From Nitrospirales bacterium (GTDB lineage Bacteria; Nitrospirota; Nitrospiria; Nitrospirales; UBA8639), in assembly GCA_965212625.1 (NCBI GenBank), contig OZ243124.1, forward strand, positions 2,007,898 to 2,071,897: a stretch of DNA of 64,000 nt. Reading direction: 5' to 3'. This document shows positions 2,790-38,916 of the stretch, piece by piece; position 1 is the stretch's first letter, and each line of letters opens with the position of its first letter. The notes under the pieces are model-generated. The model was given only the letters and a program-made list of their open reading frames with translations. It was not told the DNA's origin and did no database searches. Made by a program: the position numbers and the translations under genes.

Positions 2790-2797
2790 GGACGAGC

Positions 2798-4509: not shown

Positions 4510-4574
4510 CGGGAATCCACAAAAAAGGAAAATCTTATGAATGTGTGTCGAAAAATCCAGGATGGAGGGTGATC

Positions 4575-9579: not shown

Positions 9580-9975
9580 TCCGTGGGGCGTGGGTGATGC
9601 GGGCTGGATTCCCGCTTTCGCGGGAATGACAGAAGCGGGGGCCTGCGGCGTGAGCCGTGGGTTGTGGGTGGTGCGGGCTGGATTCCCGCTTTCGCGGGAA
9701 TGACAGAAGCGGGGGCCTGCGGCGTGAGCCGTGGGTTGTGGGTGATGCGGGCTGGATTCCCGCTTGCGCAGGAATGACAGAAGCGGGGGCCTGCGGCGTG
9801 AGCCGTGGGTTGTGGGTGGTGCGGGCTGGATTCCCGCTTGCGCGGGAATGACAGAAGCGGGGGCCTGCGACATGAGCCGTGGGGCGTGGGTGATGCGGGC
9901 TGGATTCCCGCTTTCGCGGGAATGACAGAAACGGGGGGGCCTAGGACGTGAGCCGTGGGTCGCGAGTGGTGAGGG
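9556..9975. repeat. Tandem repeat, 74-bp unit x5 (plus partial ends), each carrying the palindrome ggattcccgc-ttt-cgcgggaatgac
   Basis: The motif gggctggattcccgc starts at 9601, 9675, 9749, 9823 and 9897, an exact 74-bp period. Confidence 0.9.
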
Positions 9976-11639: not shown

Positions 11640-11643
11640 GCCG

Positions 11644-17822: not shown

Positions 17823-17839
17823 ATCCAGCGTCCGTAGGC

Positions 17840-18893
17840 CTCCAATTCCCCTTCAAAACTGGTGCCAGCTTGGGTATCGATCCTCCAATTCCCCTTCAAA
17901 ATTGGTGACTACCGTGCCCAACTCCCTCCAATTTCCCTTCAAAACTGGTCTGCAACGGTGGGAGGAACCTCCAATTCCCCTTCAAAACTGATGACGACTA
18001 CAGCGGTGCGCCTCCAATTCCCCTTCAAAACTGGTGTGTCATGATCCGTCCTTCCTCCAATTCTCCTTCAAAACTGGTAAGGAACATCATGACCAAACCT
18101 CCAATTCCCCTTCAAAACTGGTTTGATACGCGCGCCACAGCCTCCAATTCCCCTTCAAAACTGGCCTGAAGACGTTTGTCCAGCCTCCAATTCCCCTTCA
18201 AAACTGGCATCATCACGATGTCCTTCCTCCAATTCCCCTTCAAAACTGGCTGCGCGGTCTTGGCGATGCCTCCAATTCCCCTTCAAAACTGGCCTGAGGC
18301 AGATGTATTTGCCTCCAATTCCCCTTCAAAACTGGTTCAACTTTCCTTTGGCGACCTCCAATTCCCCTTCAAAACTGGTTCACTCGCCAAATTATGGCCT
18401 CCAATTCCCCTTCAAAACTGGTTCCCAAGATAGTCGTTTTCCTCCAATTCCCCTTCAAAACTGGTTTCCAGCAACGGCAGGGTCCTCCAATTCCCCTTCA
18501 AAACTGGTAGCCAAAAAACAATTTCGCCTCCAATTCCCCTTCAAAACTGGTCGTGGTGCCGATCGCAACCTCCAATTCCCCTTCAAAACTGGTCCAGGAA
18601 CTCAACCTGAGCCTCCAATTCCCCTTCAAAACTGGTCTCAAAGAGACTGGAGGTCCTCCAATTCCCCTTCAAAACTGGTTGATCATCGTCTCTCCTTCCT
18701 CCAATTCCCCTTCAAAACTGGTGAGTCCATCCGCGCAGGACCTCCAATTCCCCTTCAAAACTGGTTATCGCAACGCGTGGCGGCCTCCAATTCCCCTTCA
18801 AAACTGGTTTGGTGATCTGAAAAATGCCTCCAATTCCCCTTCAAAACTGGTGCCGCCGTCCGCGTCGGCCCTCCAATTCCCCTTCAAAACTGG
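17840..18893 (-). CRISPR. CRISPR array: 25 repeats of 24 nt (+ strand CCTCCAATTCCCCTTCAAAACTGG), 24 spacers of 18-20 nt
   Basis: Repeat starts are spaced 42-44 bp. Repeats 7-25 are identical. Repeats 2, 3, 4 and 6 carry single substitutions, marking the old end at the left. AT-rich leader lies at the right end. The strand call is an inference from this polarity. Confidence 0.95.
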
Positions 18894-18953
18894 TCATATA
18901 TCAGTTAACCATGTATATTTCAACAAATTTTTGATTTTTTCAAAGAGTTATTT
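18894..18953 (-). promoter_or_regulatory. AT-rich CRISPR leader with a candidate minus-strand promoter
   Basis: About 75% AT against a GC-rich background. On the minus strand: TTGAAA (18918-18923), 17 nt, then TATATG (18895-18900), directly abutting the first repeat. Confidence 0.35.
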
Positions 18954-19982
18954 ATGCCTGAAATTAGTGAATTTCAACATCCAGATTCAATTTGGACATG
19001 GAAGTCAAATAAGCGTAGGAGAAAGACAACCTTGTGGCTGCCTTATGTCTCTCGGGTGGAGAGTGTCAAGAAGAGAGTCTGGCGGTTTACATATAACGGA
19101 GGCGAGGTCGACACCGATGTGGCACGGCTTGATTGCGTCATGTTTTATGGCGCGACGGGACAGATTCCCATTGCGCTCATTGACGATCTTGCCGCGCTCC
19201 GCGTGCCGCTGCTGGTCCACCGGCGCAACATCGGCCGCCCCGCCGTCTTTTTGCCGGCGCCCAGAGCCGATGCCGACGACATTCTGACGAAACAGATCGT
19301 CGCCCGCACGCATGGCCCGAAACGCGCCTACCTTGCGCGAACCCTGGTGCGCGAGCGGTTCCGAGGCGTGGCAGGCACCTTCTCTCTCCCCGATACGGCC
19401 TATCGGCGGCTTGCCCTGACGCGCACCCTCGGGCAGGTCCGCCTCTGGGAGGCCGAGCACTCACGCAAATACTGGAGGAAGTATTTCGCCAGCCTGGGCC
19501 ATCCGGACGTCACACGGCGGGAGAAAGGGCCGCTCCCCGCTGCGCTCGATGCCGGTTCCATGTTTCTGTCGGGGATTCTCCTCCGCTGGCTGTTGATCCA
19601 CCGGCTTTCACCCAGTCACGGCTTCCTCCATGAAGGGACCGATTACATGGGGCTTGTGTACGATCTCATGGAGCCGGCACGGTACATGATTGAAGAGGCA
19701 CTCGCCGTTGCGTGCAAGTCTCATCTCCCGGACGGCGATGCTGACTCGCTGACGAAATCGACTTTATCCGCAATAAAAAACAACTTGGAAAAGGTTGTCT
19801 ACGTTCCCGCGACCCGTCAGTCCGTCCGCCGCAAAAACCTGTTGCACGGAAACGTGCTGGCACTACGGGCCTATCTTGCCGGCGACATGCGTCGGTTCGT
19901 CATTCCCACCGCGGGGGAACGCAAAGGGGGGCGGCCGCCAAAAGTTTCGTACTGGCTGCCGGGTGATATTCCTTCGAGGTGA
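18954..19982 (+). CDS. cas1: CRISPR-associated integrase Cas1
   Basis: WEAEHSRKYW and GFLHEGTDYMGLVYDLMEPARY match conserved Cas1 Glu/His/Asp-Glu motifs. The start is uncertain: ATG 18954 lies in AT-rich sequence, and a TTG near 19032 is possible. Confidence 0.8.
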   Translation: MPEISEFQHPDSIWTWKSNKRRRKTTLWLPYVSRVESVKKRVWRFTYNGGEVDTDVARLDCVMFYGATGQIPIALIDDLAALRVPLLVHRRNIGRPAVFLPAPRADADDILTKQIVARTHGPKRAYLARTLVRERFRGVAGTFSLPDTAYRRLALTRTLGQVRLWEAEHSRKYWRKYFASLGHPDVTRREKGPLPAALDAGSMFLSGILLRWLLIHRLSPSHGFLHEGTDYMGLVYDLMEPARYMIEEALAVACKSHLPDGDADSLTKSTLSAIKNNLEKVVYVPATRQSVRRKNLLHGNVLALRAYLAGDMRRFVIPTAGERKGGRPPKVSYWLPGDIPSR

Positions 19983-20092: not shown

Positions 20093-23000
20093 TTATCGCT
20101 GCTGGGTCAAGTCCCGCCGTGATTTTTCGGAGTCAATCCGTTCAAAAAAACGCCGTCCGATGTTGATCGATGCGTTTTCATCCGCGTGTCCCTCGAAACC
20201 GCAATCTAGATAGACGCATCTGAAACGGGACTGCGTGGTGTCGGAAGACATTTCGGATGCCGGAGGTTGGCGCATGTTTCGCTTAGCGATAGACTCGACG
20301 CGATGACGCGGTTCGGTCCCTTTTGAGATTGGGACGTTCAGCGGCGGTCTTTCCTTGCGGTGGCGGAAGTTCTTCAAAGCATTGGGCGGATAATCAGCTC
20401 GGTTGAGAAGCCGTATCGTCCCGTTTTTAAGGGCAACGTGGCCAGATTCTCCCACCTCGATCTTGTCCGGCATGTTCCGAAGCTCCTGAAGTGCGTTCCG
20501 GCCGCACCGGTGGCAGGTCTGGCTGGTGCCGGCGGGGTTTACCTTGATGCCGGGGAAGAGGCGAAGCGGCTTGGACGGGCCGGAATACTGATTTTCCGTC
20601 GTGTTCCAGTTCTGGACGTAGATGTAAGGGTGTTCCCAGGTATCTGCCGTGAACCAGTGTTGACGGCGAATGGTCTTGTGCGCGTCCACTTCCGAATACA
20701 CGTAACGCCGCAGGACCGACCCGTAGATCATCTCTAGCTGCCGGCCCCCCGATTCAAAATTGCCAACCGATCTTTCGAGTATGGGAAACCCACGGAACCG
20801 TTCGCACAGGGTCTCAATGCGGTTGCAGACGTCTCCCACGATGTTTTCCCGGAACTGCATCAGGGCGTTCGAGTAGGTCTGGCCGACCTTCTGGTTGGGT
20901 TGCCGCGAACCGCGGTGCCGGCGGACCGCGGCTTGCAATTTCCTGAAGGTGGGAATTGCGACGCTACCGACCTCGAACGGGTCTCGGCAGCCGCTTTCCA
21001 CGAACTTCTTCAGCGAGAAGATCGCGTATCCGATGCGCCGTTCGCCAAGGTCGATGGCAACGATGTTGTCGAAAAGCAGGGCGTCCTTGGTTTCGGGATA
21101 AGGCCGTTTGTCAACGACGGGAACGGCAAGCTCAGCCCGAATTTTCACCGGCTCCGCCGAAAGGCGCACATTCTCACCTTCCAGTTTCAAGGACTGCTTG
21201 AACACCCGGTCCAGGAGCAACGTGTAGTCGCCGAGTTTCACGTCCTTGTCCCTCACGGTCTCCGTCAAGGTGCGGTCCAGCCATGTCTTGAACGAAGGCG
21301 GTCCGACCAATCGAAAGGCCGGCCGTTTGAGAGGTCTCCACCGTTTGAGATCGGTCGCGTTCTTCTTCACGGGCAATCCGGCTAGCCGCGGCGCCGTACC
21401 AGAGCGGAGGTTGAGTTCGACGAACCAGTCGTGGGGCGCTTGGCGCAACAGTGCCCGCGAACCCGGCTCGGGAAAGTTCGCCTTGCTCAAGCCCTCCACT
21501 GTCTTCCGGGGTAGAACCGCGATGGTTTGATCACGCACGACCGCTGGGAGTGCCAAGCCTTTGGCAATCTCGCCCTTGGCTGAGGAATAGTCCGCGGGCG
21601 GCTGCCAAGGGCGGTCCTTCGGGACATAAAACAACTCTTCGTGGTCAAGGCGCAAAAACTTTGCGCGCACGATGAAACTGTCACGAAACGCACGAAACGA
21701 AAGTCCATTGATGTCGCTGTTGAAGAGATTAAACGCGCGCACGGCGACGTTACGGGGAACTGTTTCTGCGTCGAGTTGCGCCGCGAGCAAGGGCGGAATG
21801 TCGACGGCGGCGGTGGCCGGTCTTGCCAAGTGCCCGGGAACAGAGTCGGGCAGTCCGGCGAGCCGCGTCGTAAAGACGAACTCTTCAACCAACAACAGGT
21901 CCCGGAAATGCGCGTGATTCGCGTCTGGAACCGACCTAAGTTCCTTGCGGATTTCCGCTGCGCGCTGCTCCAACCAGGCGAGCCAGTCAATTGCCCGGGC
22001 GCGGTCCATATCGAGACCGTATGCTTGATGACGGGATGTACTGAAAGGGTGCCGATAGATGGCGCCGCTGCGGTTGTGGAAGTAACGATTGGCTTCCTTC
22101 TCATTCAGAAAAATCGGCGTCATTGCTTCCCGAACTCGCCTGGCTGCGCGGGACGACAGCCTGCGCGACATGGCAGCGATGCGGTGAAGCAGGCGTCGAA
22201 GGGCGTATTCGGCCGCAAGACTAGAATCTATCTTACGGTCGGAGAGCGCCTTTCGCTCGCGTTCTTCCAAAGCGGGAAACGGATCAAGAGCAGCACCGCC
22301 CACCCATTCGGTAAGCCGCCGGAAGTGCTCTCGACGCCCCTGCATGGCGCCATTCAGGCGGGTTTCCAGGCGTTGAATCTCGCCGCGCGCGTCGTCGGTT
22401 CCGCCGGATATCCTGTTCAGCTTCGGCAGCTTGGGGAGCTTTTTCAATTCCTTAGAGAATTCCCGCTTAAGCGATTCGAGGCGGTTTGCGCGAGCTTCGT
22501 CTTCGGCGGATTCTCTTTCCTGCTCAAGACGGTTGTCCAACATGGCGAATTGACCCCTCAGTTCGGTCAATTCACTTGCCACGGTGTCGATAGTTTCGAT
22601 CTCCTGCGGCCCTGGAATATCGCCACCTCTCAAGATGGCGAGCGCGGCGCCGGCTTCTTGGACTCGCTCGGGAACACGATCGGAGAGGGCGACCAGACCG
22701 GCCACGTCAGTGTGCTGCCCCGAAAACAGCGAGGCGTTTTCGGCGTCTGTCAGTCGTTCAGGGATCAAGATATCTGGCGGCTGAGAATACAGCGCGGTGA
22801 GTTGACAAATCCGTTTCCAGTAGTTCGAGACCCATGAGGCGATCTTGCCGCCGACCGAGCCGCGGAACTCGGCGTAGCCGTCCGTCTCGAAGATCGGGTT
22901 GACCGGAATCGCGTCTGCGAACACTTTGAGTTGCTCTACCCGTCGCAGTTCTGTGTGAGGGACGGCGAGGGCTTCAACGAGGTGCTCAATACTTGATTGA

Positions 23001-23893
23001 CGAAGGAAGCACAGACCCTTGCCGAACAACCAGGACAACCCGTTATTCTGGCTGGTGACGACCTCTCCATTCAAACGGCCGGCAAATTTGGACGATGTCG
23101 GATCGAGCCCGGGCATGTCCCGTTGCAGTCTGCCGGCGCAAACCGCCACCACCTGATGAAGCCAAATTGCTTCGTTGCCGTCCATGTCCACGAACGGCGA
23201 TTCGGGATCGTGGGCGAGTGTGCCGGACGGACCTCTTCTGCGGTTACATACAGGTGGAAGCGCGCCGATCTTTGGAAAAGAATCTCCAAGAGTTGCAAAA
23301 TACTCGTCTGCGCACGCCAACGCGCCCTCGACAGCGTCGGCGAGGTACTTCCATCCGGAGAATTTTGCGGTGACTTCTGAGGCTATTCCCTTAGCCAACG
23401 ATAATTCAGGCTGATCTTTCTCCGTCTCCTTCGGTGAACGGTTGTTCCAGTCTTGAAACAATCGTCGTGTAAGTTCGTCCGCCGACCACGGGCGCTCAAC
23501 CCCGCCTCTACTTTGTGGGGAAGTGGTAAGGACCTTTTCGATTGACCGGACTGTAACGGCAGGGTTCGTGATTTTGGCGTGTACGGTGAGCGCCGCGGCA
23601 AAGGCAGCTTCGGGGTAGTGCCTTCGATTCACGAACTGGCGTGTTTCCACTTCTTTGGAAAACAGCCGGAACCCGGATAGGTGAATCGCACAGACCAAGC
23701 CGATCAAGCTCCCCCGTGCAATCCCCTCGGTGACGTCGTATGTCCGAGCAGCCGTGTCGAAGTCTATATCGCCGTCCTGGACGTCCAGCTTGAACTTGTA
23801 CGTAAAGACGCTTTCCTTCTGTCGGCGCGCCAATGCGGCTACTTTACGCCGCCAGTCGCGGGCATTCTGACCACCGTAATATTCTCGTCTCAT
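20093..23893 (-). CDS. cas12: Type V CRISPR effector, Cas12c/Cas12d(CasY)-like
   Basis: RuvC-I is IVAIDLGERRIGYAIF. RuvC-II is FPILERSVGNFESGG. RuvC-III is GHADENASINIGRRF. Zn-ribbon cysteines: TSQTCHRCG ... CVYLDCG. ATG 23893 follows GGAG with an 8-nt spacer. The open frame extends to 23983 (1296 aa). Confidence 0.85.
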   Translation of the reverse strand: MRREYYGGQNARDWRRKVAALARRQKESVFTYKFKLDVQDGDIDFDTAARTYDVTEGIARGSLIGLVCAIHLSGFRLFSKEVETRQFVNRRHYPEAAFAAALTVHAKITNPAVTVRSIEKVLTTSPQSRGGVERPWSADELTRRLFQDWNNRSPKETEKDQPELSLAKGIASEVTAKFSGWKYLADAVEGALACADEYFATLGDSFPKIGALPPVCNRRRGPSGTLAHDPESPFVDMDGNEAIWLHQVVAVCAGRLQRDMPGLDPTSSKFAGRLNGEVVTSQNNGLSWLFGKGLCFLRQSSIEHLVEALAVPHTELRRVEQLKVFADAIPVNPIFETDGYAEFRGSVGGKIASWVSNYWKRICQLTALYSQPPDILIPERLTDAENASLFSGQHTDVAGLVALSDRVPERVQEAGAALAILRGGDIPGPQEIETIDTVASELTELRGQFAMLDNRLEQERESAEDEARANRLESLKREFSKELKKLPKLPKLNRISGGTDDARGEIQRLETRLNGAMQGRREHFRRLTEWVGGAALDPFPALEERERKALSDRKIDSSLAAEYALRRLLHRIAAMSRRLSSRAARRVREAMTPIFLNEKEANRYFHNRSGAIYRHPFSTSRHQAYGLDMDRARAIDWLAWLEQRAAEIRKELRSVPDANHAHFRDLLLVEEFVFTTRLAGLPDSVPGHLARPATAAVDIPPLLAAQLDAETVPRNVAVRAFNLFNSDINGLSFRAFRDSFIVRAKFLRLDHEELFYVPKDRPWQPPADYSSAKGEIAKGLALPAVVRDQTIAVLPRKTVEGLSKANFPEPGSRALLRQAPHDWFVELNLRSGTAPRLAGLPVKKNATDLKRWRPLKRPAFRLVGPPSFKTWLDRTLTETVRDKDVKLGDYTLLLDRVFKQSLKLEGENVRLSAEPVKIRAELAVPVVDKRPYPETKDALLFDNIVAIDLGERRIGYAIFSLKKFVESGCRDPFEVGSVAIPTFRKLQAAVRRHRGSRQPNQKVGQTYSNALMQFRENIVGDVCNRIETLCERFRGFPILERSVGNFESGGRQLEMIYGSVLRRYVYSEVDAHKTIRRQHWFTADTWEHPYIYVQNWNTTENQYSGPSKPLRLFPGIKVNPAGTSQTCHRCGRNALQELRNMPDKIEVGESGHVALKNGTIRLLNRADYPPNALKNFRHRKERPPLNVPISKGTEPRHRVESIAKRNMRQPPASEMSSDTTQSRFRCVYLDCGFEGHADENASINIGRRFFERIDSEKSRRDLTQQR

Positions 23894-24358
23894 GAAGTGA
23901 ACTCCATATTTGGGCAATTTCACAATCCCGGTTGGTGAATTCCTTCCCCTGATGCCAAGCCAACCACCTTGGCCGATATCCATTAAGACTATGTAGCGAC
24001 ATGCCCGGTACTGTCAACGCCTAGCTTGGCTAGGGACCAAGCCTCCAGGTTGCCTCCTTCGCTGCAAGGAAAAACTGATTTCAACTCCCGAGGAAAACTT
24101 GAACCTCACGCCTACCCGCCCGCGCCGTTTGTGTGTTTGACTCTCCGATTACGCTATGCGAAAAGGCACTTCAGCGAAAGTGGAAGGGTGCGGTTCATTA
24201 TGAACTGTTCGAGACAGTGCCGGCTTAGATGGTGATCGTTTCAAGGTCCCGACCGCGTGTGTCGCCGAGGTTTCCGGTCTTGACCAGCGGCCACCCCTTC
24301 CTTGTTTGATCGCTGGGTTCCTTTGCGTCTATCAGCCACGCTTTTCCACTCGTCAAGA

Positions 24359-25885
24359 ATGAACCGTTCGCTCATGGACCGTTCTTGGATACTGGTCGTC
24401 TTCGTCGGGTATTGTGCGACGCTGATCGGCATTGCCGTCTTTCGCGGCCGGCGGATGCGGGTGATGTCCGATTACGTGCTTGGGGGGCGGCGGATGAGCA
24501 GTTTCACGTCGGCGCTCAGTGCCAGTTCGTCCGGCACCAGCGGTTGGGCGATTCTGGTGTTTCCGGCGTTGGCCTTCCAGCATGGGTTGGTGGAGGCGTG
24601 GACGGCTCTGGCGTTGGTGGCGGGCATCTGGTCCGGTTGGACGGTGCTCGCGAAACGGCTGCGTCGCTACACCATTGCCGCGGAGGATTCCCTCACCCTG
24701 CCGGAGTTCCTGGAAAAGCGGTTCGGGGACGCCACCGGGACCGTGCGCACGGTGGCGGCGCTCATCACCCTCTTTTTCATCGTCTTCTACCTCAGTTCCG
24801 GCTTGATCGCGGGTTCCAAGTTGTTGGGGACGGTGTTCGGACTGGATGAGATGCTGGGGGTGGTGGTGACGCTCGCGGCCGTGGGGTCCTACACGTTCAT
24901 CGGCGGCTTCCTGGCGGTGTCCAGGACCGACGTGTTTCAGGCGGCGCTGATGCTGGCGGCGTTCGTCATCCTGCCGTTGTGGTTAATCGTCGTGACGGAC
25001 AACCCGTTCGAGGGCCTGGGTGAGACGACGCCCGGCTTCTGGAATCCCTTCACTGACCGGAAGGGCGATCCTCTCAACGCGATCTTTTTGCTCTCGACGG
25101 TAGGATGGGGATTGGGCTACTTGGGCTCGCAGCGCGTGGTGCAGCGTTTCATGGCGGTGGGAAGCGAGGCCAGGATTCCGCAAAGCCGCGCCATCGGCAC
25201 GGCGTGGATGTTCCTCGTCTATCTGTTTGCGCTGTTGCTGGGGCTGGTTGCCCTGCCGGCGCTGTCGGAGGCAGGCCGGCTGGACGAGGTGACGGCCGAC
25301 CCCGAGCGCGTCTATCTTGTGGCGACGCAGGTGTTCTTCCACCCGATCGTGGGCGGGCTGTTGCTGTCCGCGGTGATTGCCGCGGTGATGAGCACGGCGG
25401 ATTCGCAACTGTTGTTGGCGTCGGTGGTCACCACCAATGATCTGCCTTTCGTCAAACGGTACACCGCTGCGCTGGGGGCCGGTGCCCGGGTCCGGTTGGC
25501 CCGGGTTCTGCTCGTGGTGACGGGCGTCGTGGCCGCGGCGTTCTCGATTGTCAACCCGGAATCGGTGTTCGTCCTGGTGTCGTACGCCTGGGGCGGCATG
25601 GGGGCGGCGTTTGCCCCGGTCACGATCATGGCGCTGTACTGGCGCCGGTTCAACGTTCAGGGTGCGGTTGCGGCCATGGTGACCGGTACGGCTGCGGCGT
25701 CAATCTGGGGATACGCTTCGGGCGGTCCCGCCGGGATCATGGACCTGCAACCCGCCACTCCCGGCTGCCTGACGGCGGTGCTGGCGGCCGCCGTCGTGAC
25801 CGTGCTGACGCCTAGGCCGTCCACGGCGGCGGTGGCCCTGTTCGACAAGGTGAACGCTCCCGCCGCAAGACCGGCCAGGCCCTGA
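24359..25885 (+). CDS. putP: Sodium:solute (proline) symporter, SSF family
   Basis: About 508 aa, polytopic membrane protein. GGRRMSSFTSALSASSSGTSGW and further SSF-like segments. The ORF opens at 24302, but ATG 24359 is more plausible. Confidence 0.7.
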   Translation: MNRSLMDRSWILVVFVGYCATLIGIAVFRGRRMRVMSDYVLGGRRMSSFTSALSASSSGTSGWAILVFPALAFQHGLVEAWTALALVAGIWSGWTVLAKRLRRYTIAAEDSLTLPEFLEKRFGDATGTVRTVAALITLFFIVFYLSSGLIAGSKLLGTVFGLDEMLGVVVTLAAVGSYTFIGGFLAVSRTDVFQAALMLAAFVILPLWLIVVTDNPFEGLGETTPGFWNPFTDRKGDPLNAIFLLSTVGWGLGYLGSQRVVQRFMAVGSEARIPQSRAIGTAWMFLVYLFALLLGLVALPALSEAGRLDEVTADPERVYLVATQVFFHPIVGGLLLSAVIAAVMSTADSQLLLASVVTTNDLPFVKRYTAALGAGARVRLARVLLVVTGVVAAAFSIVNPESVFVLVSYAWGGMGAAFAPVTIMALYWRRFNVQGAVAAMVTGTAAASIWGYASGGPAGIMDLQPATPGCLTAVLAAAVVTVLTPRPSTAAVALFDKVNAPAARPARP

Positions 25886-25964: not shown

Positions 25965-25993
25965 TTGACTCTTCGGCGTCAACGGCGTCTAAT
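25965..25993 (+). promoter_or_regulatory. Candidate sigma70-type promoter (TTGACT-17-TCTAAT)
   Basis: 28 of 31 nt identical to the element at 28278-28308, upstream of recQ. Confidence 0.4.
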
Positions 25994-26024
25994 CAACCCG
26001 TTCATTTCACTCTGGAGTCGCCGA

Positions 26025-27260
26025 ATGGATTTCCACGTCGAACGAAGTTCGAATCGCATTTCGATACAAGGTGGCGTGCAACGTCACCATTTACGGCGCC
26101 TGTGTGCGTCTCTCCATCAAACGATAGTTGATCGTGGCTTTTCCGACGTTGTCTTGGACTTTTCTGCGTGCGACGGCGTGACGGAAGCCGTGATGCTTCC
26201 ACTGATGCCAATCATTACGGACTATCGCAGACGGGGAATCGGCTTCGATTTGATTCTACCGGCGGATGCCCAGCTCAATCGGCTTTTTCTCAATGCCAAC
26301 TGGGGACACCATATCAAACCGGAACGGTATGACCGTTCTTCACACGAAGGCGGCCACGTTCCTGCCCTTCGCTTCGGTGGGATGGACGATCAAAACGAAA
26401 TTCTCGATAACGTCATGAGATTGATTCTGAGGCAACTGGAAACGGATCGGTCAACCCTGAAGGCGATTGAGTGGTCACTTGGGGAAATCATGGATAACGT
26501 ATCCAATCACGCCCAATCACCGGTCGGTGGATTCGTGCAGGCCACGGCATATACAAACAGGAACCAAGTGGAGTTCGTCGTGTCCGACGCCGGCATCGGT
26601 ATTCCCGCGAGCATGCAAATAGACAATCACGCGACGGCACTCAGAGAAGCCATTCACGAAGGGGTTACCAGAGATCCAACCCAAAACGCCGGCAACGGCC
26701 TTTACGGAAGTTATCGCGTTGCCTTGCTGTCGGGCGGTCAATTTGAGATCCATTCCTTGCACGGCCTGTTATCCGTCAACAATCCTGACGAGGGAATCAG
26801 AAATAGTCAGGAGGCGGTGCCCTACAATGGGACGTCCGTTCGATGTGCCATCACGGTCGGCGACCATGAATTGCTCAATAAGGCTCTCCGATTCAAAGAT
26901 GTGCCGCATGATCCGCCCTTTGATTATATTGAGCGTACATTCGAGCGTGGTCGGGGTGACGTGACGCTCAACATGAGAGAGCAGGCGTGGGGTGACTTCG
27001 GCTCTCGTCAGGGGGGAGTGAAGATTCGCAGCGTGATCCGGAATCTCCTGAATCTGAATCATCCGGTTATTCTCGATTTCAACGGCGTCGGCGTCATATC
27101 AAGCAGTTTCGCCGACGAAGTTTTCGGGCGTTTGTTCGTCGAGATGGGACCGCGTGCCTTCATGACGCGAATCGACATGCGGAACGTCGATCCGACCGTT
27201 GAGGGTCTGATCGATCGGGCCATCGTGCAGCGCACCCGGCTCGGGAACGGTGACACGTGA
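26025..27260 (+). CDS. STAS-like N-domain + GHKL ATPase/kinase + C-terminal DUF4325 (STAS-like) protein
   Basis: ATG 26025 follows GGAG. GHKL N-box EIMDNVSNHA, G1 VSDAGIGIP, G2 NAGNGLYG. C-terminus VILDFNGVGVISSSFADEVFGRL is typical of DUF4325. Confidence 0.55.
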   Translation: MDFHVERSSNRISIQGGVQRHHLRRLCASLHQTIVDRGFSDVVLDFSACDGVTEAVMLPLMPIITDYRRRGIGFDLILPADAQLNRLFLNANWGHHIKPERYDRSSHEGGHVPALRFGGMDDQNEILDNVMRLILRQLETDRSTLKAIEWSLGEIMDNVSNHAQSPVGGFVQATAYTNRNQVEFVVSDAGIGIPASMQIDNHATALREAIHEGVTRDPTQNAGNGLYGSYRVALLSGGQFEIHSLHGLLSVNNPDEGIRNSQEAVPYNGTSVRCAITVGDHELLNKALRFKDVPHDPPFDYIERTFERGRGDVTLNMREQAWGDFGSRQGGVKIRSVIRNLLNLNHPVILDFNGVGVISSSFADEVFGRLFVEMGPRAFMTRIDMRNVDPTVEGLIDRAIVQRTRLGNGDT

Positions 27261-27509: not shown

Positions 27510-28046
27510 TCATTCTCTTCTTCGGCGGGGTCGGGCTCGTCTCCGTTCTCTCCGGCTTTGTGTAGGGCACGGCATGGCCGCGTCGGCCGTGCCGTGGTTT
27601 GGCTCGTCCTGCTTTGTCTGGTCTTGGCGCGTCGGCCGTGCTGTTTCAAGCGCGTAGGGTCGAAGCTTTTTGCGTAGTTCTTTGGAAGGGTTGGCGGTGG
27701 TATACTTGCCGCCCTTCAGCCACGATTCCGACTTCTTCCAAGCGTCAGGCGCGAACTCCAGCAGTGTATCGTGGGGCACGAGATACCAGACTCCCTCAAT
27801 GGGGAAGTTCATCCATATCTCTTTCCCTTCATACTTTTTGTCTATTCCCAGGCGGCTTTTCAGTTGGACCTTGAGGGTTGTGTCTGCATCCTTGTGGTAT
27901 GCGAGAAAATCGGCGCCTTGCCAGTCGTCCGCCAGCTTGATGCAGTTGAATCCATATTCGGCGAGGACGGCTGCGGATTTCTGAAAATTGTATATTTCCT
28001 TCTGTCTCGCACTCAGTTTCTTAAATTCGACCCGACGCAGCTTCAT
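27510..28046 (-). CDS. Small hypothetical protein, possible PD-(D/E)xK nuclease fold
   Basis: MKLRRVEFKK... with GADFLAY-x13-LKVQLKS, a D...(Q/E)xK-like pattern. The arginine-rich C-terminal tail looks non-native, and the upstream extension to 28133 lies in repeat-derived sequence. Confidence 0.35.
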   Translation of the reverse strand: MKLRRVEFKKLSARQKEIYNFQKSAAVLAEYGFNCIKLADDWQGADFLAYHKDADTTLKVQLKSRLGIDKKYEGKEIWMNFPIEGVWYLVPHDTLLEFAPDAWKKSESWLKGGKYTTANPSKELRKKLRPYALETARPTRQDQTKQDEPNHGTADAAMPCPTQSRRERRRARPRRRRE

Positions 28047-28169
28047 GCCCGTTGCCTCTGCGCCGCCGCCGGCACCATCGGCACCGCCGGAAGAAGCCGG
28101 CACATGGGAAGATGATTGCTTTGAGTTTGCCAAGTCTTCTTCCTGTCTCGTCCTGGGAAAGGGAGAGAG

Positions 28170-28346: not shown

Positions 28347-29873
28347 GTGAAGTACGATTCCCATCGAGCTCGCGCATTACTGAAGTCCGGCACCGGCCGA
28401 CCTGATGCCGCGTTCCGGGAGGGACAGGAAGAGGCTATTCGCCGTCTCGTGGAAGGACGCGGTCGCCTTCTCGTTGTCCAGAAAACCGGTTGGGGCAAGA
28501 GCGTTGTGTACTTCATTGCGGCCAAACTCCTGCGTGAAGCCAGAGAGGGTCCCGCGCTTCTCGTCTCCCCACTGCTTGCGTTGATGCGGAACTAGATCGC
28601 CGCCGCGGAGCGGATGGGGATTCACGCAATCCGTATCGCTTCCGACAACCAGGATGACTGGAAGGTCGGAGAAGAAGAGGTGCGATGCGGCAAGGCGGAC
28701 GTCCTGCTCATTTCCCCCGAGCGACTTGGCAACGAACGCTTCCGTACCGAGGTGTTGGCGGAAGTTGCCGAACGCATCAGCCTGCTGGTCATTGACGAAG
28801 CCCACTGCATCTCGGATTGGGGACACGATTTCAGGCCCGACTACCGGCGGATCGAACGGATCGCCCGCGACCTTCCGGCGAACCTCCGCCTTCTCGCCAC
28901 CACCGCGACCGCAAACGATCGGGTGATGGACGATCTCGCCGCGGTGCTTGGCCCCGGCCTGGAGGTGCTTCGCGGCGATCTCGACCGGCCGTCGCTCATG
29001 CTCCGGACGATACGATTACCTCGGCAGTCGCAACGGTTGGGGTGGCTTGCGGAGCAGCTTCCCGCGTTGCCCGGCTGCGGAATCATCTACACGCTCACCG
29101 TCCGGGATGCGATTCAGGTGGCGGAATGGCTCCGGTCACGAGGACTGGCCGTGGAATCCTATACGGGACAAACCGGAGACCGGCGCGAGGCCCTTGAACG
29201 GTCGTTGCTTGAGAATCGCGTGAAGGCGCTGGTCGCGACGACCGCGCTGGGAATGGGCTTCGACAAACCGGATCTCGGCTTCGTGATCCACTACCAGACC
29301 CCGGGATCGGTCGTGGCTTATTACCAGCAGGTGGGCCGTGCCGGTCGTGCGCTTGACGTGGCCTATGGCGTGCTGTTGAGCGGCGAGGAAGAGACCGACA
29401 TCACGGATTACTTCATTGCCAGTGCGTTCCCGACCCGTGATGAAGTTCGGCAGGTGATCGAAGCGCTCGAAGCCGCACCGAGCGGCCTGTCCGTCCCGGA
29501 TCTGCTCGGAAGCATCAATCTCAGCCGTGGACGCATCGAGAAGACGATAGCACTGCTCTCACTCGAATCACCGGCGCCCATCGCAAAACAAGGGACCACG
29601 TGGCAGTTGACCGCCGCAAACCTGAGCGACGAATTCTGGGAGCGGGCGGAGCGCCTGACCACCCTGCGGCATGAGGAGCAGCGCCAGATGCAGGAGTACG
29701 TGAGGCTCGAATCCGGACACATGGAGTTTCTCATCCGGGCGCTGGATGGAGATCCGGGAACCGTTCGCCCGCCGGACCTGCCGCCGCTGCCTACGGAGGT
29801 CGATCCGAGGCTCTTGCAGGAGGCGGTCACGTTCCTCCGCCGTACCAGTATACGACGTCAAGCAGAATGTTAA
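28347..29873 (+). pseudogene. recQ: RecQ-family helicase, helicase part of a RecQ-PRTase fusion, interrupted by an in-frame TAG and a MITE
   Basis: FREGQEEAI, VVQKTGWGKSVVY (motif I), VSPLLALMRN*IAAAERMGI (TAG 28593-28595 where RecQ has Q), LLVIDEAHCISDWGHDFRP (DEAH), LATTATA, VATTALGMGFDKPD, QQVGRAGR. Both ORFs are in the same frame. Confidence 0.8.
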
Positions 29874-29977
29874 AATGAGAATAGAAACAAGCGAAAACGC
29901 CTTTATTTGCAAGGCATTCACGATTATTCACAAATATTTCTCAAAATCGCAATTAACATTTTGATTGACGTCCTATA
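29849..29977. mobile_element. MITE-like insertion, 129 bp, AT-rich, ~25-bp terminal inverted repeats, 5-bp target-site duplication ACCAG
   Basis: Left end is tatacgacgtcaagcagaatgttaa. The reverse complement of the right end is tataggacgtcaatcaaaatgttaa, giving 22 of 25 matches. ACCAG is present at 29844-29848 and 29978-29982. Confidence 0.8.
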
Positions 29978-29983
29978 ACCAGC

Positions 29984-30559
29984 TTGCCCATCGAACCGCG
30001 CAAGCAATGGCCGGCTGGCGGTATGCCGCAATACGGAGTGCGGCGCAGATTGATCCCCGCGGAGCACCGGGCCGAGACCGGAAAGGCGCTCTGCGTCTGG
30101 GGCGACGCCGGCTGGGGCGGGCTCGTTCGGCGTGGCAAATGCCATGACGGCCGATTCGCGGATGATCTCGTCCGCGCCTGTGCTGCGCTGATGGCCCAAT
30201 GGACCCCGCGGCCGGCGCCCGAATGGGTGACCTGCATTCCGTCACGACGGCAGCCGAATCTCGTCCCGGATTTCGCCGGACGCTTGGCGACGGAGATGGG
30301 CCTGCCGTTCCATCGCTCGCTTTCGAAGGTCAAGGACCGTGCCGAGCAGAAGTCGATGGCGAACAGCGTCCGGCAGGCGCGTAACGTGGACGGCTCGATC
30401 GCGATCTCTACGGGACCGTTGCCGGGTGGGTCGGTCCTCCTGGTGGACGACGTGGTGGACTCGCGCTGGACGTTGACGGTCGCTGCATGGTTGCTGCGAT
30501 CCAACGGCTGCGGACACGTCTGGCCCCTCGCCCTTGCCTTTGCAGGCCATGACCAATGA
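29984..30559 (+). CDS. ComF-like phosphoribosyltransferase domain ORF (3' part of the MITE-split recQ-PRTase gene)
   Basis: [22 protein letters not shown] and the PRPP-loop-like [16 protein letters not shown] start only. The frame is continuous with recQ once the MITE and one TSD copy are removed. Confidence 0.6.
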
Positions 30560-31878
30560 ACACTGAACTTTCTCTGAACACGCAGGCGATGCTGCTGCTG
30601 ACCGCGCCGCTGATCGTCGGGCGGAGTCAGTCCGCCGTCAGCCCTCTGACTGCCCGCGAGTATAACGGTCTTGAACAATGGCTTCGAGAGCGACGGCGCG
30701 ACCCCACCGACTTGTTGGACACCGGAGCGAACGTGGCGTTGAAAGATTGCCGTCTCGGCTTGGATCATGAACGGATAGAACGTCTGCTCGGACGAGGCTT
30801 CCTCCTCAGTCAGGCGGTGGACCGTTGGCGAACGCGAGCGATCTGGGTCGTGAGTCGAGCCGATACAGACTACCCGCGATGCCTGAAAAAGCGTCTTGGT
30901 GATCATACGCCTCCGGTGCTCTACGGCTGTGGCGATGTCACGCTCCTGGAGACCGGCGGTCTGGCGGTCGTCGGCTCCCGGAACGTGGACGATCGACTGA
31001 TAGAATACACCGAGGGCGTGGGGCGGCTCACTGCCGAGGCGCGATGCACGCTGGTATCGGGAGGTGCCCGAGGCGTTGATCAGGCCGCGATGCGCGGGGC
31101 GCTGGAAGCAGGCGGAAGGGTGGTAGGAGTTCTAGCCGACGGTCTCGAAAAGGCCGTGATGCACCGGGAGCACCGCGAAACGTTGATGGACGGTCGGTTG
31201 ACGTTGATTTGTCCATACGATCCCGCTGCCGGTTTCCACGTCGGGCGTGCCATGGAACGTAACAAGCTAATCTACGCGCTATCGGATGCGGCCCTGGTCG
31301 TGAGCTCGGACTACGAGAAAGGAGGCACATGGACCGGAGCCGTGGAGCAACTGGATAAGCTCAAGTTCGTTCCAGTGTACGTCCGTACCAATGACGAGAG
31401 GAATAAGGGTCTTGACGGACTTCGGAAACGAGGTGCTCAACCGTGGCCGAATCCACGTGCTTCGGAAGTTCTCGAAGACATTCTGAAGGGACCATCACTC
31501 GTGGAAGGGATCACGTTGAAGCAAGAGATTCTTCCGCTCAGTGTCCAAGAAGAACGGATGCCGTCTGAGCACGATCGGCAGGTCAAGGCAACAACTTCGG
31601 AAGCCGTGCCTGACGTTCGCGTTGCGGTCACTCCTGGACCCGCGGACGAGTTGCTTGATAAGGTCGGAGATATCCTGAAACGAGCGTGCATGGATGTGCC
31701 TAAGACCGAAACTGAAGTAGCAGAAGCCCTTGACGTCTCGAGACCTCAGGCTCGAGATTGGCTGAAACGCCTGGTCGCCGGAGGCGTCCTTGAAAAACTC
31801 CCTCGGCGGCCGGCCAGATATCGCGCCGTTGGCTCCGCAAGCCCTCTGTTCGATCACGCTGCACTAGACAAACGGTGA
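30556..31878 (+). CDS. DprA/Smf-like (SLOG Rossmann) protein with C-terminal winged HTH
   Basis: ATGA overlap with the PRTase stop. [67 protein letters not shown]-terminus [22 protein letters not shown]. Confidence 0.65.
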
Positions 31879-32833
31879 GAGTGTTCTTGTGCTTCGTTTG
31901 AGAAACCGCCCGGACGTGAAATATGAAGGAACGCAGAAATCCCTGATTTCTTGACAGGATACGCGCTTGCTGCCGCGACCGGCCCGCGGATCGGCCCCCG
32001 TGAACAATTGAGTACGTCATGCGACGAACGTGAGCCGGCAGGTGTTCATTGTAGCCCTCCCAGTCGGCGTATTGCGGAAGTTTCAAGTCACGCGGCCACG
32101 TTTCCATGCTGGCCATCACCTGCATTGGCCCACCGGCCTCCATGGCCTTGCGAATTTCGCCGTTCACCAAGTTGAATAAATCACTCATGAACTTCACGTT
32201 CTCGTCAACGATTGCCACGGAGGCGTCCGCCGAGTGGGCGTTCACCGCGTGGCGCAGGTCTTTCTTTTGCAACTCCTTCAACATCCGGAGGATGGCCAGG
32301 TAGTTGGCGTCGTCCATCCACTTCCCCGGCGTCAGCGCGCGGCGTTCATAGAGGTCGGCGGTAAACGCGATGCGCTCCTCGGGCAAATGCACCACGATGG
32401 AGGCGAACCCGTCGCCCGGACCATAGTAGTGCAGGTCCACCGGTGGCCCGCGAAAGTCCACCCGCAGAGAGTCGGTGAACGTCACGACCACTTTTTCAGG
32501 AGCTACTCCCCCCACATCCAGGTCGAACACGGCTTGGCATGCGGCGTGGCAGATCACCTGAGCCTCGGGGAAGACTCCGGTGCCGCCCACGTGGTCGTAG
32601 TGTTCGTGGGACAGGACGATTCTCGTGACGGGCTTGTCGGTGATGTCGGCGATGGCACGTTTCAGCGACTGGGCCCGTCCCGGAAACGCAGGGTCGGTGA
32701 TCAGCACCCCGTCTTCGCCCACCACCACCAGGCTGGTATAGTGGAACTCGCTCATCATGTACACGTTGTCGGTGAGTCGCTTCACCGTCGGCACCGCCGG
32801 CACCATCGGCACCGCCGGAAGAAGCCGGCACAT
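31700..32833 (-). CDS. MBL-fold metallo-hydrolase; the native 3' end is apparently lost
   Basis: [10 protein letters not shown]...[24 protein letters not shown] (HxHxDH). After ...YSIVHGG the frame reads ~90 low-complexity codons through a repeat junction and antisense into the dprA-like gene. Confidence 0.6.
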
Positions 32834-32903
32834 GGGAAAATGATTGCTTTGAGTTTGCCAAGTCTTATTTTTCTCTACTATCTCGTCTTGGTAAAGGGAC
32901 GGG

Positions 32904-33069: not shown

Positions 33070-34635
33070 ATGATAAAGGAAGATACGGGAACAAAGGAGA
33101 TTTTTAATCGCACCGAAGCCGCGGCGTTTATTCGCGTAAGCGAAAAGACGCTTGGAGAGATGGCCAGAACCCGACGGATTCCATCACAGAAGGTCGGCCG
33201 GGAGTGGCGCTTTTTACGTCGCGCACTGGAAGCGTGGCTGGTCGGAGCAGGAATTCGTGATGACGCCGGACGAACGGACGTTGTCGCCCACGACCGGCCG
33301 GGCGTCGCCGAATCGGTGTTGCAATACGAACTGCCGCTTTCGAACGTTCGCGATACGGCTTTTTCAGAGAACCACGACTGTACCGTGCATCGCTGGGTGC
33401 CCTGGATCGCTGGATTCTCCGGGTCGTTTGTTGCCGGCGTGCTTGAAGGCGTGAAACGCAAGCGCCGGAAGTTGCGGGTGTTGGACCCGTTTGCCAGCGT
33501 CGGGACGACGTTGATCGAAGCCCTCAAGCAGGAATGCGACGCGGTCGGATTTGAGATCAATCCGTACGCGGCGCTGGCATGTAAGGCAAAGGTCCAAGCT
33601 GCTCACTACGATGCTGAGATGCTGGCGGCAACGCTCGACCGTTTCGAAGAATACGGCGAGGAAAAATTGTCGTTCAACGAGAAGGCCGCGTCTCTTCCTC
33701 CCTGGGGATTTTCAAGCCGGGTCCCGTTTTTCAGCCAGGAAGTGGAACGGCAAGTCCTGACCTGTCAGGATTTTATTGCGCAAGAAACGACGGGTTGGGT
33801 CACGGACTTGTTTCAGGTGGCGTTCGGCGCCGTCATGGTGAGTTTCTCAAACTACTCGTATGAGCCGAGCCTTGGGACGCGGGCCGGCGTTGGAAAGCCC
33901 AATATCGATCGTGCCGACGTGTTCAGCATTGTGAAGCGCAAGCTCCGGGACATGCACGAGGATATCGTCACGTTTCAACGGTGGATGACCAAGCACAAGC
34001 GGATGCCGCGAACGAAGGTGTATCCCCTGTCGTATTTGGACCATGCCCGGCGGATCACCCCGCACAGTATCGACGTGCTCATTACCTCACCTCCGTATCT
34101 CAACAACTATCATTACGTTCGCAACACGCGGCCGCATCTGTTCTGGCTCGGGATGGTACGCACGTCGTCCGATCTGAAGACCATTGAACGCAAGAGCTTT
34201 GGTCAATTTTGGCAGACGGTTCGGTCTGGGCCGGAGATTACGTTACGGCCGCCCCTGCCCCATCTGGCCGAACAACTTGAAGACCTCAGAGCGCGTCATG
34301 CAGAGAAAGGTGCCTATGGCGGGCGAGGGTGGGCAAACTACGTTGCGGCCTACTTTAACGATTGTCAACGCTTTTGCGCTCTCACGCGGACTCGTATGCG
34401 GCCCGGGGGAAAGGTTGTCGTTGTCATCGGCAACAACGTTCTGCAAGGCATGGAGTTTCAAACGGACAAGCTGTTTGCCGAAATTGCGGAACACGAGGGT
34501 TTTGGGGTCGTCGCGCTGCATGAAGTACGTAAAAAGCGCACGGGCAACGGCATCGTGAATTCGTCGGTCAGAATCGGGACGGTGACACAACCAACGCGCT
34601 TATACGAAACCGCGGTGGAACTTTGGTCGCCGTAA
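33070..34635 (+). CDS. Excisionase-type HTH fused to an N6/N4 DNA amino-methyltransferase (orphan)
   Basis: N-terminus NRTEAAAFIRVSEKTLGEMARTRRIPSQKVGREWRF. Motif I VLDPFASVGTTLIEA, motif IV VLITSPPYLNNY. No nuclease partner is visible. Confidence 0.65.
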   Translation: MIKEDTGTKEIFNRTEAAAFIRVSEKTLGEMARTRRIPSQKVGREWRFLRRALEAWLVGAGIRDDAGRTDVVAHDRPGVAESVLQYELPLSNVRDTAFSENHDCTVHRWVPWIAGFSGSFVAGVLEGVKRKRRKLRVLDPFASVGTTLIEALKQECDAVGFEINPYAALACKAKVQAAHYDAEMLAATLDRFEEYGEEKLSFNEKAASLPPWGFSSRVPFFSQEVERQVLTCQDFIAQETTGWVTDLFQVAFGAVMVSFSNYSYEPSLGTRAGVGKPNIDRADVFSIVKRKLRDMHEDIVTFQRWMTKHKRMPRTKVYPLSYLDHARRITPHSIDVLITSPPYLNNYHYVRNTRPHLFWLGMVRTSSDLKTIERKSFGQFWQTVRSGPEITLRPPLPHLAEQLEDLRARHAEKGAYGGRGWANYVAAYFNDCQRFCALTRTRMRPGGKVVVVIGNNVLQGMEFQTDKLFAEIAEHEGFGVVALHEVRKKRTGNGIVNSSVRIGTVTQPTRLYETAVELWSP

Positions 34636-34866
34636 GTCATCGCGCCCGGGTATCAAAAAGCCGGACGATCTGATTGGCCGTCTCCGCGGCATGGAGTTTC
34701 TGACGTGAAGGGATGGGAATTGCGTGAAAGGAGTGGATATGGAAAAAACAGGCTCCGGCGTTTGTCAGAACGTCAAACTGAGGTGGCGGCACAACTACGG
34801 AACGCAGGAATCCCGGATTTCTTGACAGGATGCAAGAGGCTTCTCTAGCATGTTTCGTTCGTGATA

Positions 34867-34940
34867 GGCGCGTAGCTCAGGGGGAGAGCGCTACCTTGAC
34901 ACGGTAGAGGTCGGCGGTTCAATACCGCCCGCGCCTACCA
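34867..34940 (+). tRNA. tRNA-Val (GAC), CCA encoded
   Basis: Cloverleaf read by eye: acceptor GGCGCGU/GCGCGCC, anticodon arm CUACC-UUGACAC-GGUAG, T arm GGCGG-UUCAAUA-CCGCC. Confidence 0.9.
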
Positions 34941-38324: not shown

Positions 38325-38651
38325 CTATGCTGCTGGTTGCGGCTCGTAGGGCTCAATCTCAATCTCATCCTCGCGCGCTTGGGCCTGCATCACGTCGTAG
38401 GCGGTTTGCAGGCGTATCCACGTTTCCGTCGTGGAGCCGAAAGCCTTCGCCAGCCGTATGGCCATTTCGCTCGACAGACGTGCGCGACCGTTCACCAGAT
38501 TCGAGAGTGCCTGACGACTGACGCCGAGGACCTTCGCGCCGTTGGTGACGTTGAGGCCAAGCGGTTCCAGACAGGACACCCGCACCACCGTGCCCGGATG
38601 CGGCGGATTTTTCATAGGCATCGTGGTTCTCCGTTTCTTAGTGGTAGTCAA
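38325..38651 (-). CDS. higA: HigA-family antitoxin (XRE HTH)
   Basis: HPGTVVRVSCLEPLGLNVTNGAKVLGVSRQALSNLVNGRARLSSEMAIRLAKAF. Confidence 0.8.
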   Translation of the reverse strand: MTTTKKRRTTMPMKNPPHPGTVVRVSCLEPLGLNVTNGAKVLGVSRQALSNLVNGRARLSSEMAIRLAKAFGSTTETWIRLQTAYDVMQAQAREDEIEIEPYEPQPAA

Positions 38652-38916
38652 TCAATTCGACATCGTAGACGTCTTCACCTTCGAAGTGGAAGATGAGACG
38701 CCAGTTGGTCTTCACGGTTAACGACCAATAACCTTTTCGATCACCTTTGAGTGCATGAAGTCGGTAGTGGGGAATGCGCATTGCCTCGGGTGAACTGGCG
38801 ACATCAAGCTGGGCGAGCATCACTTCGACCCGTTCTTGCAGATCAGGACGGATGAGGCTACGGTCGCCGTGTTCATAAAGACGTTTGAGTCCGCGATGAC
38901 GAAAGCTCCGTATCAT
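38638..38916 (-). CDS. higB: HigB/RelE-family toxin (killer protein)
   Basis: MIRSFRHRGLKRLYE...LHALKGDRKGYWSLTV..NWRLIFHFEGEDVYDVELIDYH. Overlaps higA by 14 nt. Confidence 0.8.
   Translation of the reverse strand: MIRSFRHRGLKRLYEHGDRSLIRPDLQERVEVMLAQLDVASSPEAMRIPHYRLHALKGDRKGYWSLTVKTNWRLIFHFEGEDVYDVELIDYH

Follow-up and report, generated by a model that had tools for sequence, protein, structure and literature searches.

PsyrTA, also named RqlHI, is a two-gene system of the toxin–antitoxin (TA) type. Its first gene encodes a fusion of a RecQ-like helicase and a phosphoribosyltransferase (PRTase), PsyrT or RqlH, and its second gene encodes a DprA-like protein, PsyrA or RqlI. A locus of this design occupies positions 28,347 to 31,878 of a 64,000-nucleotide stretch of contig OZ243124.1 from a Nitrospirales bacterium, the whole of which was analysed here and is called the window below. 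The locus is very probably a recently decayed copy of a PsyrTA (RqlHI) anti-phage system, in which psyrT is broken by an amber codon and a 129-bp insert and psyrA is intact.

The RqlH protein of Mycobacterium smegmatis, 691 residues in length, is a DNA-dependent ATPase and a 3'-5' helicase. It is composed of a RecQ-like motor, a tetracysteine zinc domain, and a ComF-like PRTase module at the C terminus; mycobacteria that possess RqlH are without RecQ (PMC3378886). In Escherichia coli F11, RqlH alone induces the SOS response and causes filamentation and loss of viability. The toxicity requires the PRTase domain and an aspartate of its phosphoribosyl pyrophosphate (PRPP) loop, and the PRTase domain expressed alone is not toxic. 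The DprA-like RqlI suppresses the toxicity and co-precipitates with full-length RqlH, not with RqlH that is devoid of the PRTase domain. The helicase activity restrains the toxicity of RqlH, as does RqlI (PMC4670107). The Pseudomonas syringae PsyrT is described as toxic without PsyrA (Sberro 2013, as cited in PMC4670107). Millman 2022 places PsyrTA in a list of two-gene TA systems with a part in phage resistance and states that no psyrA deletion mutant could be obtained by transformation (bioRxiv 10.1101/2022.05.11.491447). A parallel with the competence proteins ComFA, ComFC, and DprA was already drawn in 2015, when Russell and Mulvey proposed a cooperative function on DNA (PMC4670107). The coupling of a helicase–PRTase with DprA and the competence analogy were described again in 2017 by Aravind's group.

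ShosTA is the nearest other system. [quoted passage not shown] ShosT is a PRPP-binding protein; one study describes coupled PRTase and pyrophosphatase activities of ShosT that disturb purine metabolism. ShosA binds ssDNA as well as RecA, and ssDNA affects the RecA interaction (PMC11961720, PMC12961424).

In the window, psyrT starts with a GTG at 28347 on the plus strand. Reading-frame analysis shows that it is open to 29848 save for one in-frame TAG at 28593–28595. Reading resumes in the +2 frame at 29983, past the 129-nt AT-rich insert, and ends at a TGA stop at 30557–30559. The locus is sequentially composed of the following parts.

28347–28592, plus strand: 5' fragment of psyrT (rqlH), codons 1–82, with helicase motif I TGWGKS (28485–28502) and most of motif Ia
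28593–28595, plus strand: in-frame amber at codon 83 (CAG to TAG), at the conserved Gln of motif Ia (PLLALMRNQ)
28596–29848, plus strand: middle part of psyrT, codons 84–501, with the remaining RecQ-like motor (DEAH at 28794–28805, motif VI at 29325–29348) and a linker without a Cys4 zinc module
29844–29848: left copy of the 5-bp target-site duplication ACCAG
29849–29977: non-coding, AT-rich insertion of 129 bp with terminal inverted repeats, which interrupts psyrT at codon 501 and moves the reading frame by +2
29978–29982: right copy of the 5-bp target-site duplication ACCAG
29983–30559, plus strand: 3' part of psyrT, codons 501–692, in a different frame, with the ComF-like PRTase and an intact PRPP loop (30437–30472)
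30556–31878, plus strand: psyrA (rqlI), intact, 440 residues, DprA/SLOG-like antitoxin gene, whose ATG overlaps the psyrT stop (ATGA, 30556–30559)
30829–31440, plus strand: DNA_processg_A domain of PsyrA, residues 92–295 (Pfam, 1.4e-37)
31699–31830, plus strand: C-terminal winged helix-turn-helix (wHTH) of PsyrA, TrmB/MarR-type, residues 382–425 (Pfam)

The domains and frames thus confirm the fusion of a RecQ helicase with a ComF-like PRTase and its ATGA coupling, at 30556, to a DprA/SLOG gene, which a preliminary description of this DNA had proposed with exact coordinates. That description also knew of no characterised system with this architecture, a statement that is overturned by full-length matches to the PsyrT and PsyrA models of PADLOC and by the published experiments on this pair. 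The helicase part matches the PsyrT model over positions 1–500 of 689 (E=6e-198) and the PRTase part over positions 505–685 of 689 (E=1e-62). The downstream protein matches the PsyrA model over positions 1–395 of 398 (E=4e-131). The next-best models are far weaker, namely DpdF (2e-87), ShosA (4e-25), and ShosT (6e-4). At the level of sequence models, these PADLOC matches settle the identification as PsyrTA, and the locus is an already known, ordinary member of a described family.

For further comparison, psyrT was repaired in silico by reading the TAG as Gln and removing 29849–29982, giving a protein of 692 residues. Pfam assigns DEAD, Helicase_C, and ResIII to its first 340 residues and a weak Pribosyltran to the last 100, and finds neither an HRDC nor an RQC domain in it. 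PsyrA additionally matches SLOG cluster 4 (1.2e-10, Pfam). Its C-terminal wHTH had been regarded as an extra element; the domain is present, but it is not extra, being covered by the PsyrA model. The repaired PsyrT is 49% identical over its full length to a 698-residue chromosomal RqlH of E. coli, and PsyrA is 42% identical to the adjoining RqlI. A homologue search with the repaired protein scored 8000 candidates, all of them at E <= 1e-20, and all but one of the best 120 homologues listed are 688–708 residues long.

The locus shares with PsyrTA/RqlHI the two-gene order with overlapping genes, and the succession of a RecQ-like motor without HRDC, a ComF-like PRTase, and a DprA/SLOG protein with a C-terminal wHTH. 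The residues mutated in published work, the Lys of motif I, DEAH, and the PRPP-loop aspartates, are kept. In particular, the PRPP loop of the window aligns with LLVDDIVDSAWT of E. coli RqlH, which contains the acidic loop DIVD663. Two differences are found. The toxin gene of the window is a pseudogene, and the subclade to which it belongs is without the zinc cysteines of M. smegmatis RqlH and has five residues deleted.

The locus resembles ShosTA in its pairing of a PRTase with a DprA-like protein, and the latter matches the ShosA structure 9vzo (E=1e-4) in addition to the ShosA model. ShosT has no helicase, and the match of the window PRTase to it is marginal. In addition, ShosA neutralises without binding ShosT (PMC11961720, PMC12961424), whereas RqlI co-precipitates with RqlH (PMC4670107). 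Membership in ShosTA was considered and rejected, the PsyrA model surpassing that of ShosA by a wide difference in E value (4e-131 vs 4e-25) and ShosT reaching only 6e-4.

Two close relatives, L001 and L002, carry intact versions of the locus on megabase contigs that are syntenic with the window. Both psyrT genes encode 692 residues. The repaired PsyrT is 98% identical to the protein of L001 (P0001) and 95% identical to that of L002 (P0002), and PsyrA is 97% and 95% identical to its counterparts. The common gene order comprises a sodium:solute symporter, a HATPase/STAS-like gene, psyrT, psyrA, and, on the opposite strand, a metallo-beta-lactamase-fold gene; in L002 it continues with an HTH-methyltransferase and then thrS-infC-rpmI-rplT. 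The alignment of the psyrT 5' fragment with the intact 692-residue orthologues begins at residue 1. Codon 83 is CAG in both relatives. L001 has an empty insertion site, an uninterrupted CGTACCAGCTTGCCC with a single ACCAG, and the alignment of L002 shows no insert at this junction. The two lesions, which the preliminary description had also recognised, are real and confined to the window lineage, because neither occurs in the syntenic orthologues, which are 98% and 95% identical.

The Gln of motif Ia is present in all six aligned homologues with a readable codon, and the pseudogene of E. coli 1919D62 (L083) has an amber there. The idea of a programmed amber was examined on this account and rejected. 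The same Gln codon is amber in the rqlH of strain 1919D62 (6127–6129 of L083). No more than 2 of 1651 E. coli genomes have this amber; both of these ranked at the top because the query itself contained the TAG. The E. coli amber codon sits within a CCAGG Dcm site. Such sites are deamination hotspots.

The insert has terminal inverted repeats of 25 nt with three mismatches (none expected by chance). Its GC content is 0.44, against approximately 0.6–0.69 on both sides. It folds into a long hairpin (z = -4.6), has stops in all forward frames, and contains no open reading frame (ORF). Together with the target-site duplication, it adds 134 bases, so that in-frame stops and a frameshift would persist were the TAG an error. 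The preliminary description had named it a miniature inverted-repeat transposable element (MITE). The terminal inverted repeats, the target-site duplication, the small size, and the lack of coding capacity bear this out, but the multi-copy nature does not follow. No second copy was found in the 64-kb window, searched with three mismatches allowed, or in about 200 fetched loci. Two scans of JGI metagenomes with degenerate patterns of the terminal repeats gave only single chance matches to the 16-base core and no second element. The insert is therefore called MITE-like and not a MITE, because the latter term implies many copies and repetition could not be shown.

The decay of psyrT is recent, since all catalytic motifs are intact and the lineage-specific substitutions show no excess of amino-acid changes. 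TGWGKS, DEAH, QQVGRAGR, and the PRPP loop are unchanged and are conserved across the family alignment. Changes private to the window lineage of psyrT amount to 9 synonymous and 6 non-synonymous codons, and the intact L001 lineage has the same numbers. Relaxed selection is thus not apparent as an excess of amino-acid changes in the window lineage, the counts being too small for a test. In psyrA, the private changes are 12 synonymous and 4 non-synonymous codons.

The system is non-functional as a defence in this genome because a full-length PsyrT cannot be made: the amber codon ends translation after 82 residues, and the insert splits the helicase from the PRTase. The remnant is an intact antitoxin gene, probably an orphan. 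Loss of the toxin first, with retention of the antitoxin, would be the expected order of decay for a TA pair, since the reverse order would presumably be lethal.

Family comparison reveals a further division within PsyrT. It was seen across 80 genome loci (L003–L082), L084, the window, L001, and L002, and cysteines were counted over the region of window residues 425–505. In the window, L001, L002, and 32 of the 80 loci, this region contains at most one Cys and shows a five-residue gap. All other aligned loci have four or five Cys, with one exception that has three. The zinc-containing group (C..CGxC..C) includes the E. coli F11-type RqlH, Pseudomonas, and Providencia. The cysteine-less subclade also includes M. 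colombiense and, from a separate alignment, the copy on an E. coli integrative element. PsyrA splits likewise, with 45–66% identity to the window PsyrA in its own clade and 31–51% (most 35–45%) in the other. Judged by these alignments, the cysteine-less subclade is a variant within the PsyrTA family and not a new system. The characterised proteins with examinable sequences all fall into the zinc-containing group, and we know of no experiment on any member of the cysteine-less subclade.

The retained psyrA may be something other than a passive leftover. Selection may keep it as an orphan antitoxin that neutralises PsyrT arriving on mobile elements (anti-addiction) or that serves as a DNA-binding regulator; a related thought is that the cysteine-less PsyrT works differently. 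We consider this rather unlikely.

Homologues allow a working model for the intact pair. In the two close relatives, PsyrT combines an N-terminal RecQ-like 3'-5' DNA motor with a C-terminal ComF-like PRTase, and PsyrA, translated from the overlapping start codon, combines a DprA/SLOG fold with a C-terminal winged helix. As in the homologues, the PRTase would be needed, via its PRPP-binding loop, for the genotoxic effect, and the helicase domain and PsyrA/RqlI would keep this genotoxicity in check. By analogy with RqlI and RqlH, PsyrA would bind the PRTase-bearing part of PsyrT. DNA intermediates of phage replication or recombination might then engage PsyrA, as has been proposed for the DprA-like protein of ShosTA, or the helicase, and lift the restraint. 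The released PRTase activity might damage nucleotide or DNA metabolism, such that infection is aborted.

The pair might instead be a housekeeping module for DNA repair or uptake, acting on chromosomal or incoming ssDNA as a paralogue of ComFA/ComFC/DprA, with no part in defence. RqlH is a genuine 3'-5' helicase, and it occurs in mycobacteria without RecQ (PMC3378886). Russell and Mulvey also proposed a joint DNA function with parallels to competence (PMC4670107). The window locus indeed shares with the competence set a superfamily 2 (SF2) helicase, a ComF-type PRTase, and a DprA Rossmann/SLOG fold, and its helicase core aligns with the RecQ structures 4q47 and 1oyw (E=1e-45 to 1e-49). However, the window helicase is RecQ-type and fused to the PRTase. 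It differs from housekeeping RecQ in its C-terminal PRTase, in the absence of HRDC and RQC by Pfam, and in a score below the RecQ cut-off. The NCBIfam models give 248 bits for RecQ TIGR01389 (cut-off 640), 215.9 for recQ_fam (219.8), 20.3 for comF TIGR00201 (233.6), and 89.9 for dprA TIGR00732 (191.2). The picture of a competence look-alike, drawn earlier, thus holds for the kinds of parts; a RecQ helicase simply replacing ComFA in an otherwise competence-like set does not, the PRTase and DprA parts lying far under the comF and dprA cut-offs.

Distribution bears on the same question. A scan of one genome per species yielded at least 599 confirmed relatives, of which the 80 best were analysed. 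These show 47–84% identity and represent Nitrospirota, Proteobacteria, Acidobacteriota, Chloroflexota, Verrucomicrobiota, Cyanobacteria, Actinomycetota, Bacteroidota, Spirochaetota, and others. A distribution that is patchy and spans several phyla with high identity is indicative of frequent horizontal transfer. In E. coli, chromosomal rqlHI lies between gntU and yhgN and is present in only 1651 of 5426 complete genomes. A second E. coli copy, 69% identical to that of the window, resides on an integrative element beside Trb conjugation genes, an ABC-three-component system, and a HigA gene. Copies on plasmids are rare: among 72,556 plasmid records, only 14 encode full-length PsyrT (12 of them at 80% coverage or more), haloarchaeal ones included; phage records gave no full-length match.

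A PsyrA homologue lies directly 3' of psyrT in 72 of the 80 best genome loci and in L001 and L002, so that the co-occurrence in intact homologues, put forward earlier as a check, is borne out. Of the eight remaining loci, four have little or no sequence past psyrT, and overall the pairing is found in about 95% of loci. The other four (L030, L048, L068, and L079) carry a solo psyrT followed by unrelated genes, for a sulfatase, a LysR regulator, a PhyH protein, and a type IV pilin-like protein. These solo genes beside ordinary metabolic genes are in favour of a housekeeping role, as are the many housekeeping neighbours in 15 sampled loci. Among 88 neighbour proteins of these 15 diverse loci, Hma occurs in two loci, AAA_21/HEC-01-type ATPases are represented by three or four proteins, and BrxL, a Schlafen-type helicase, and a C5 methyltransferase occur once each; housekeeping and metabolic genes are found too. 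The census is qualitative, having no control set, and the enrichment in defence islands is taken from bioRxiv 10.1101/2022.05.11.491447. It shows only that the association of psyrTA with defence genes is frequent, not universal. The expectation that homologues lie among defence genes is therefore upheld in that such genes recur, and qualified in that housekeeping genes recur as well.

A housekeeping function of the pair is nevertheless very improbable. The pair is dispensable, since one lineage carries it as a pseudogene and close relatives have it intact. Its neighbours in the window are defence genes, and there are no competence genes near psyrTA in the window. TA behaviour (PMC4670107) and phage resistance (bioRxiv 10.1101/2022.05.11.491447) have both been published. 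The earlier proposal of a conflict or defence module, made of paralogues of the helicase, PRTase, and DprA parts and set in a defence island, agrees with these observations.

Another possibility concerns the activity of the locus in its present state. The PRTase frame at 29984–30559 and psyrA might still work as a reduced, ShosTA-like pair, or the amber might be a sequencing error or be suppressed. The PRTase fragment keeps the PRPP loop and the ATGA overlap with psyrA, its match to ShosT is weak (E=6e-4), PsyrA matches ShosA (E=4e-25), and the substitutions in psyrA are mostly synonymous (12 vs 4). On the other hand, the PRTase domain of RqlH alone is not toxic in E. coli (PMC4670107), and the fragment of the window would need a TTG start. 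A scan restricted to promoter consensus sequences found no promoter-like site on the plus strand, either inside the insert or close to it. In the window, TAG serves as an ordinary stop that terminates thrS and three other long genes. The 134 added bases interrupt the frame even without the TAG, and the remaining motor fragment is without motif I. Residual activity of this kind is hardly credible.

A role of the helicase as the DpdF-type part of a 7-deazaguanine (Dpd) DNA-modification/restriction system is all but refuted: several PADLOC DpdF models match the helicase core (best E=2e-87) and two short ones match the PRTase tail, but the PsyrT model scores 657 bits vs 292, NCBIfam DpdF reaches 160 bits against a cut-off of 550, no Dpd family is among the listed PADLOC matches of the other scanned window ORFs, and the partner gene is PsyrA.

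Several points weigh against reading the locus as a decayed PsyrTA anti-phage system. In one native-host study, protection by E. coli PsyrTA was not detectable. The functional evidence comes from homologues, not from this copy or its cysteine-less clade, and the mechanistic part of the model, that is, the PRTase product and the phage trigger, would hold only by analogy with these homologues and with ShosTA. Neither PsyrT nor PsyrA has an entry in the Protein Data Bank, where RecQ cores, DprA, and ShosA are the only matches. About 77 loci include 4 with a solo psyrT, of which two are actinobacterial, and rqlH without rqlI is reported to be common in Gram-positives (PMC4670107). Some members of the psyrT family may for this reason have a non-defence role. 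For the amber, a sequencing error is conceivable in principle; for the insertion it is not.

As a member of the family, the locus adds one inactivated PsyrTA/RqlHI example in the defence island of an uncultured bacterium, and by this alone little is gained. It does provide a clean, datable case of toxin-first decay in a TA-type defence system, in which both lesions can be polarised against relatives of 98% and 95% identity. It is also a reminder that automatic defence annotation misses pseudogenised systems. The comparison further shows that the PsyrTA family contains a widespread subclade without the zinc module. The product or target of the PsyrT PRTase and its trigger are questions of the whole family and are not specific to this locus.

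The surroundings of psyrTA form a dense defence island that spans 1–34.6 kb of the window and ends at a tRNA-Val gene (34866–34940) before thrS. The features of the island and the TA pair beyond it are listed below.

45–2786: Ppl-like PHP-ATPase
2786–4027 and 4545–5810: two Schlafen AlbA_2 genes
6198–9191: HmaB methylase
10353–12294: HEC-01 A/B
12301–13692: NsnB-like ATPase
14318–14881: truncated HEC-01A
15012–17819: HmaC
17838–18895: CRISPR array
18954–19979: cas1
20096–23983, minus strand: cas12c, 1296 residues (PADLOC Cas12c, E=0)
24302–25885: sodium:solute symporter
25965–27257: HATPase/STAS-like protein resembling the N terminus of DrmA
28347–31878, plus strand: psyrTA
31703–32833, minus strand: metallo-beta-lactamase-fold gene
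33070–34632: HTH-fused type II methyltransferase
38325–38916: HigB and HigA

The location of psyrTA among CRISPR, methyltransferase, and TA genes had been noted before and is found as described, with the array, cas1, and cas12c upstream, the HTH-methyltransferase downstream, and HigBA farther along. The array, cas1, and cas12c constitute a type V-C locus. The array consists of about 25 units with a period of 43 nt, in which a repeat of about 25 nt, CCTCCAATTCCCCTTCAAAACTGG, alternates with spacers that measure only about 18 nt. This looks unusual, but very short spacers have been published as a trait of type V-C (PMC6546366).

The immediate flanks of psyrTA contain several repeats. Two pairs of direct repeats, 27251–27308/31952–32009 and 28153–28238/32887–32972, are 80–81% similar and bracket psyrTA at a distance of about 4.7 kb. 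Each is located to the 3' or 5' side of a gene on the minus strand, and within the 5' copies a promoter-like TTGACA-17-CACAAT occurs on that strand. Rfam finds only two tRNAs in the window and nothing in the repeats flanking psyrTA.

A segment of 532 bp upstream of psyrT (27612–28143) is absent from both syntenic relatives and is flanked by the 9-bp direct repeat CTCGTCCTG. It could be an insertion in the window or a deletion in the relatives. The segment contains a minus-strand ORF of about 145 residues (MKLRRVEFKK...), which has no Pfam or PADLOC match and a possible PD-(D/E)xK-like motif. At the high-coordinate end, upstream of this ORF, 88 bp (28061–28148) are 92% identical to 32789–32876, upstream of the metallo-beta-lactamase-fold gene.

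Other repeats are found farther from psyrTA. The tandem Schlafen AlbA_2 genes have a common 300-nt repeat (3873–4172 and 5656–5955). HmaB and HmaC have no obvious HmaA between them. In the gap between HmaB and HEC-01A, a tandem repeat at 9576–9962 consists of about five copies of a 74-nt unit with 92% identity and overlaps only a doubtful minus-strand ORF. Finally, dispersed GC-rich palindromic repeats that resemble repetitive extragenic palindromic (REP) elements are located at 6094–6152, 44532–44590, and 45841–45899, and also at 48481–48544 and 62028–62703. They are of two types, CCCTCTCCC..GG.GGGAGAGGGC and GCCCTTCG..GGGCAAG units.

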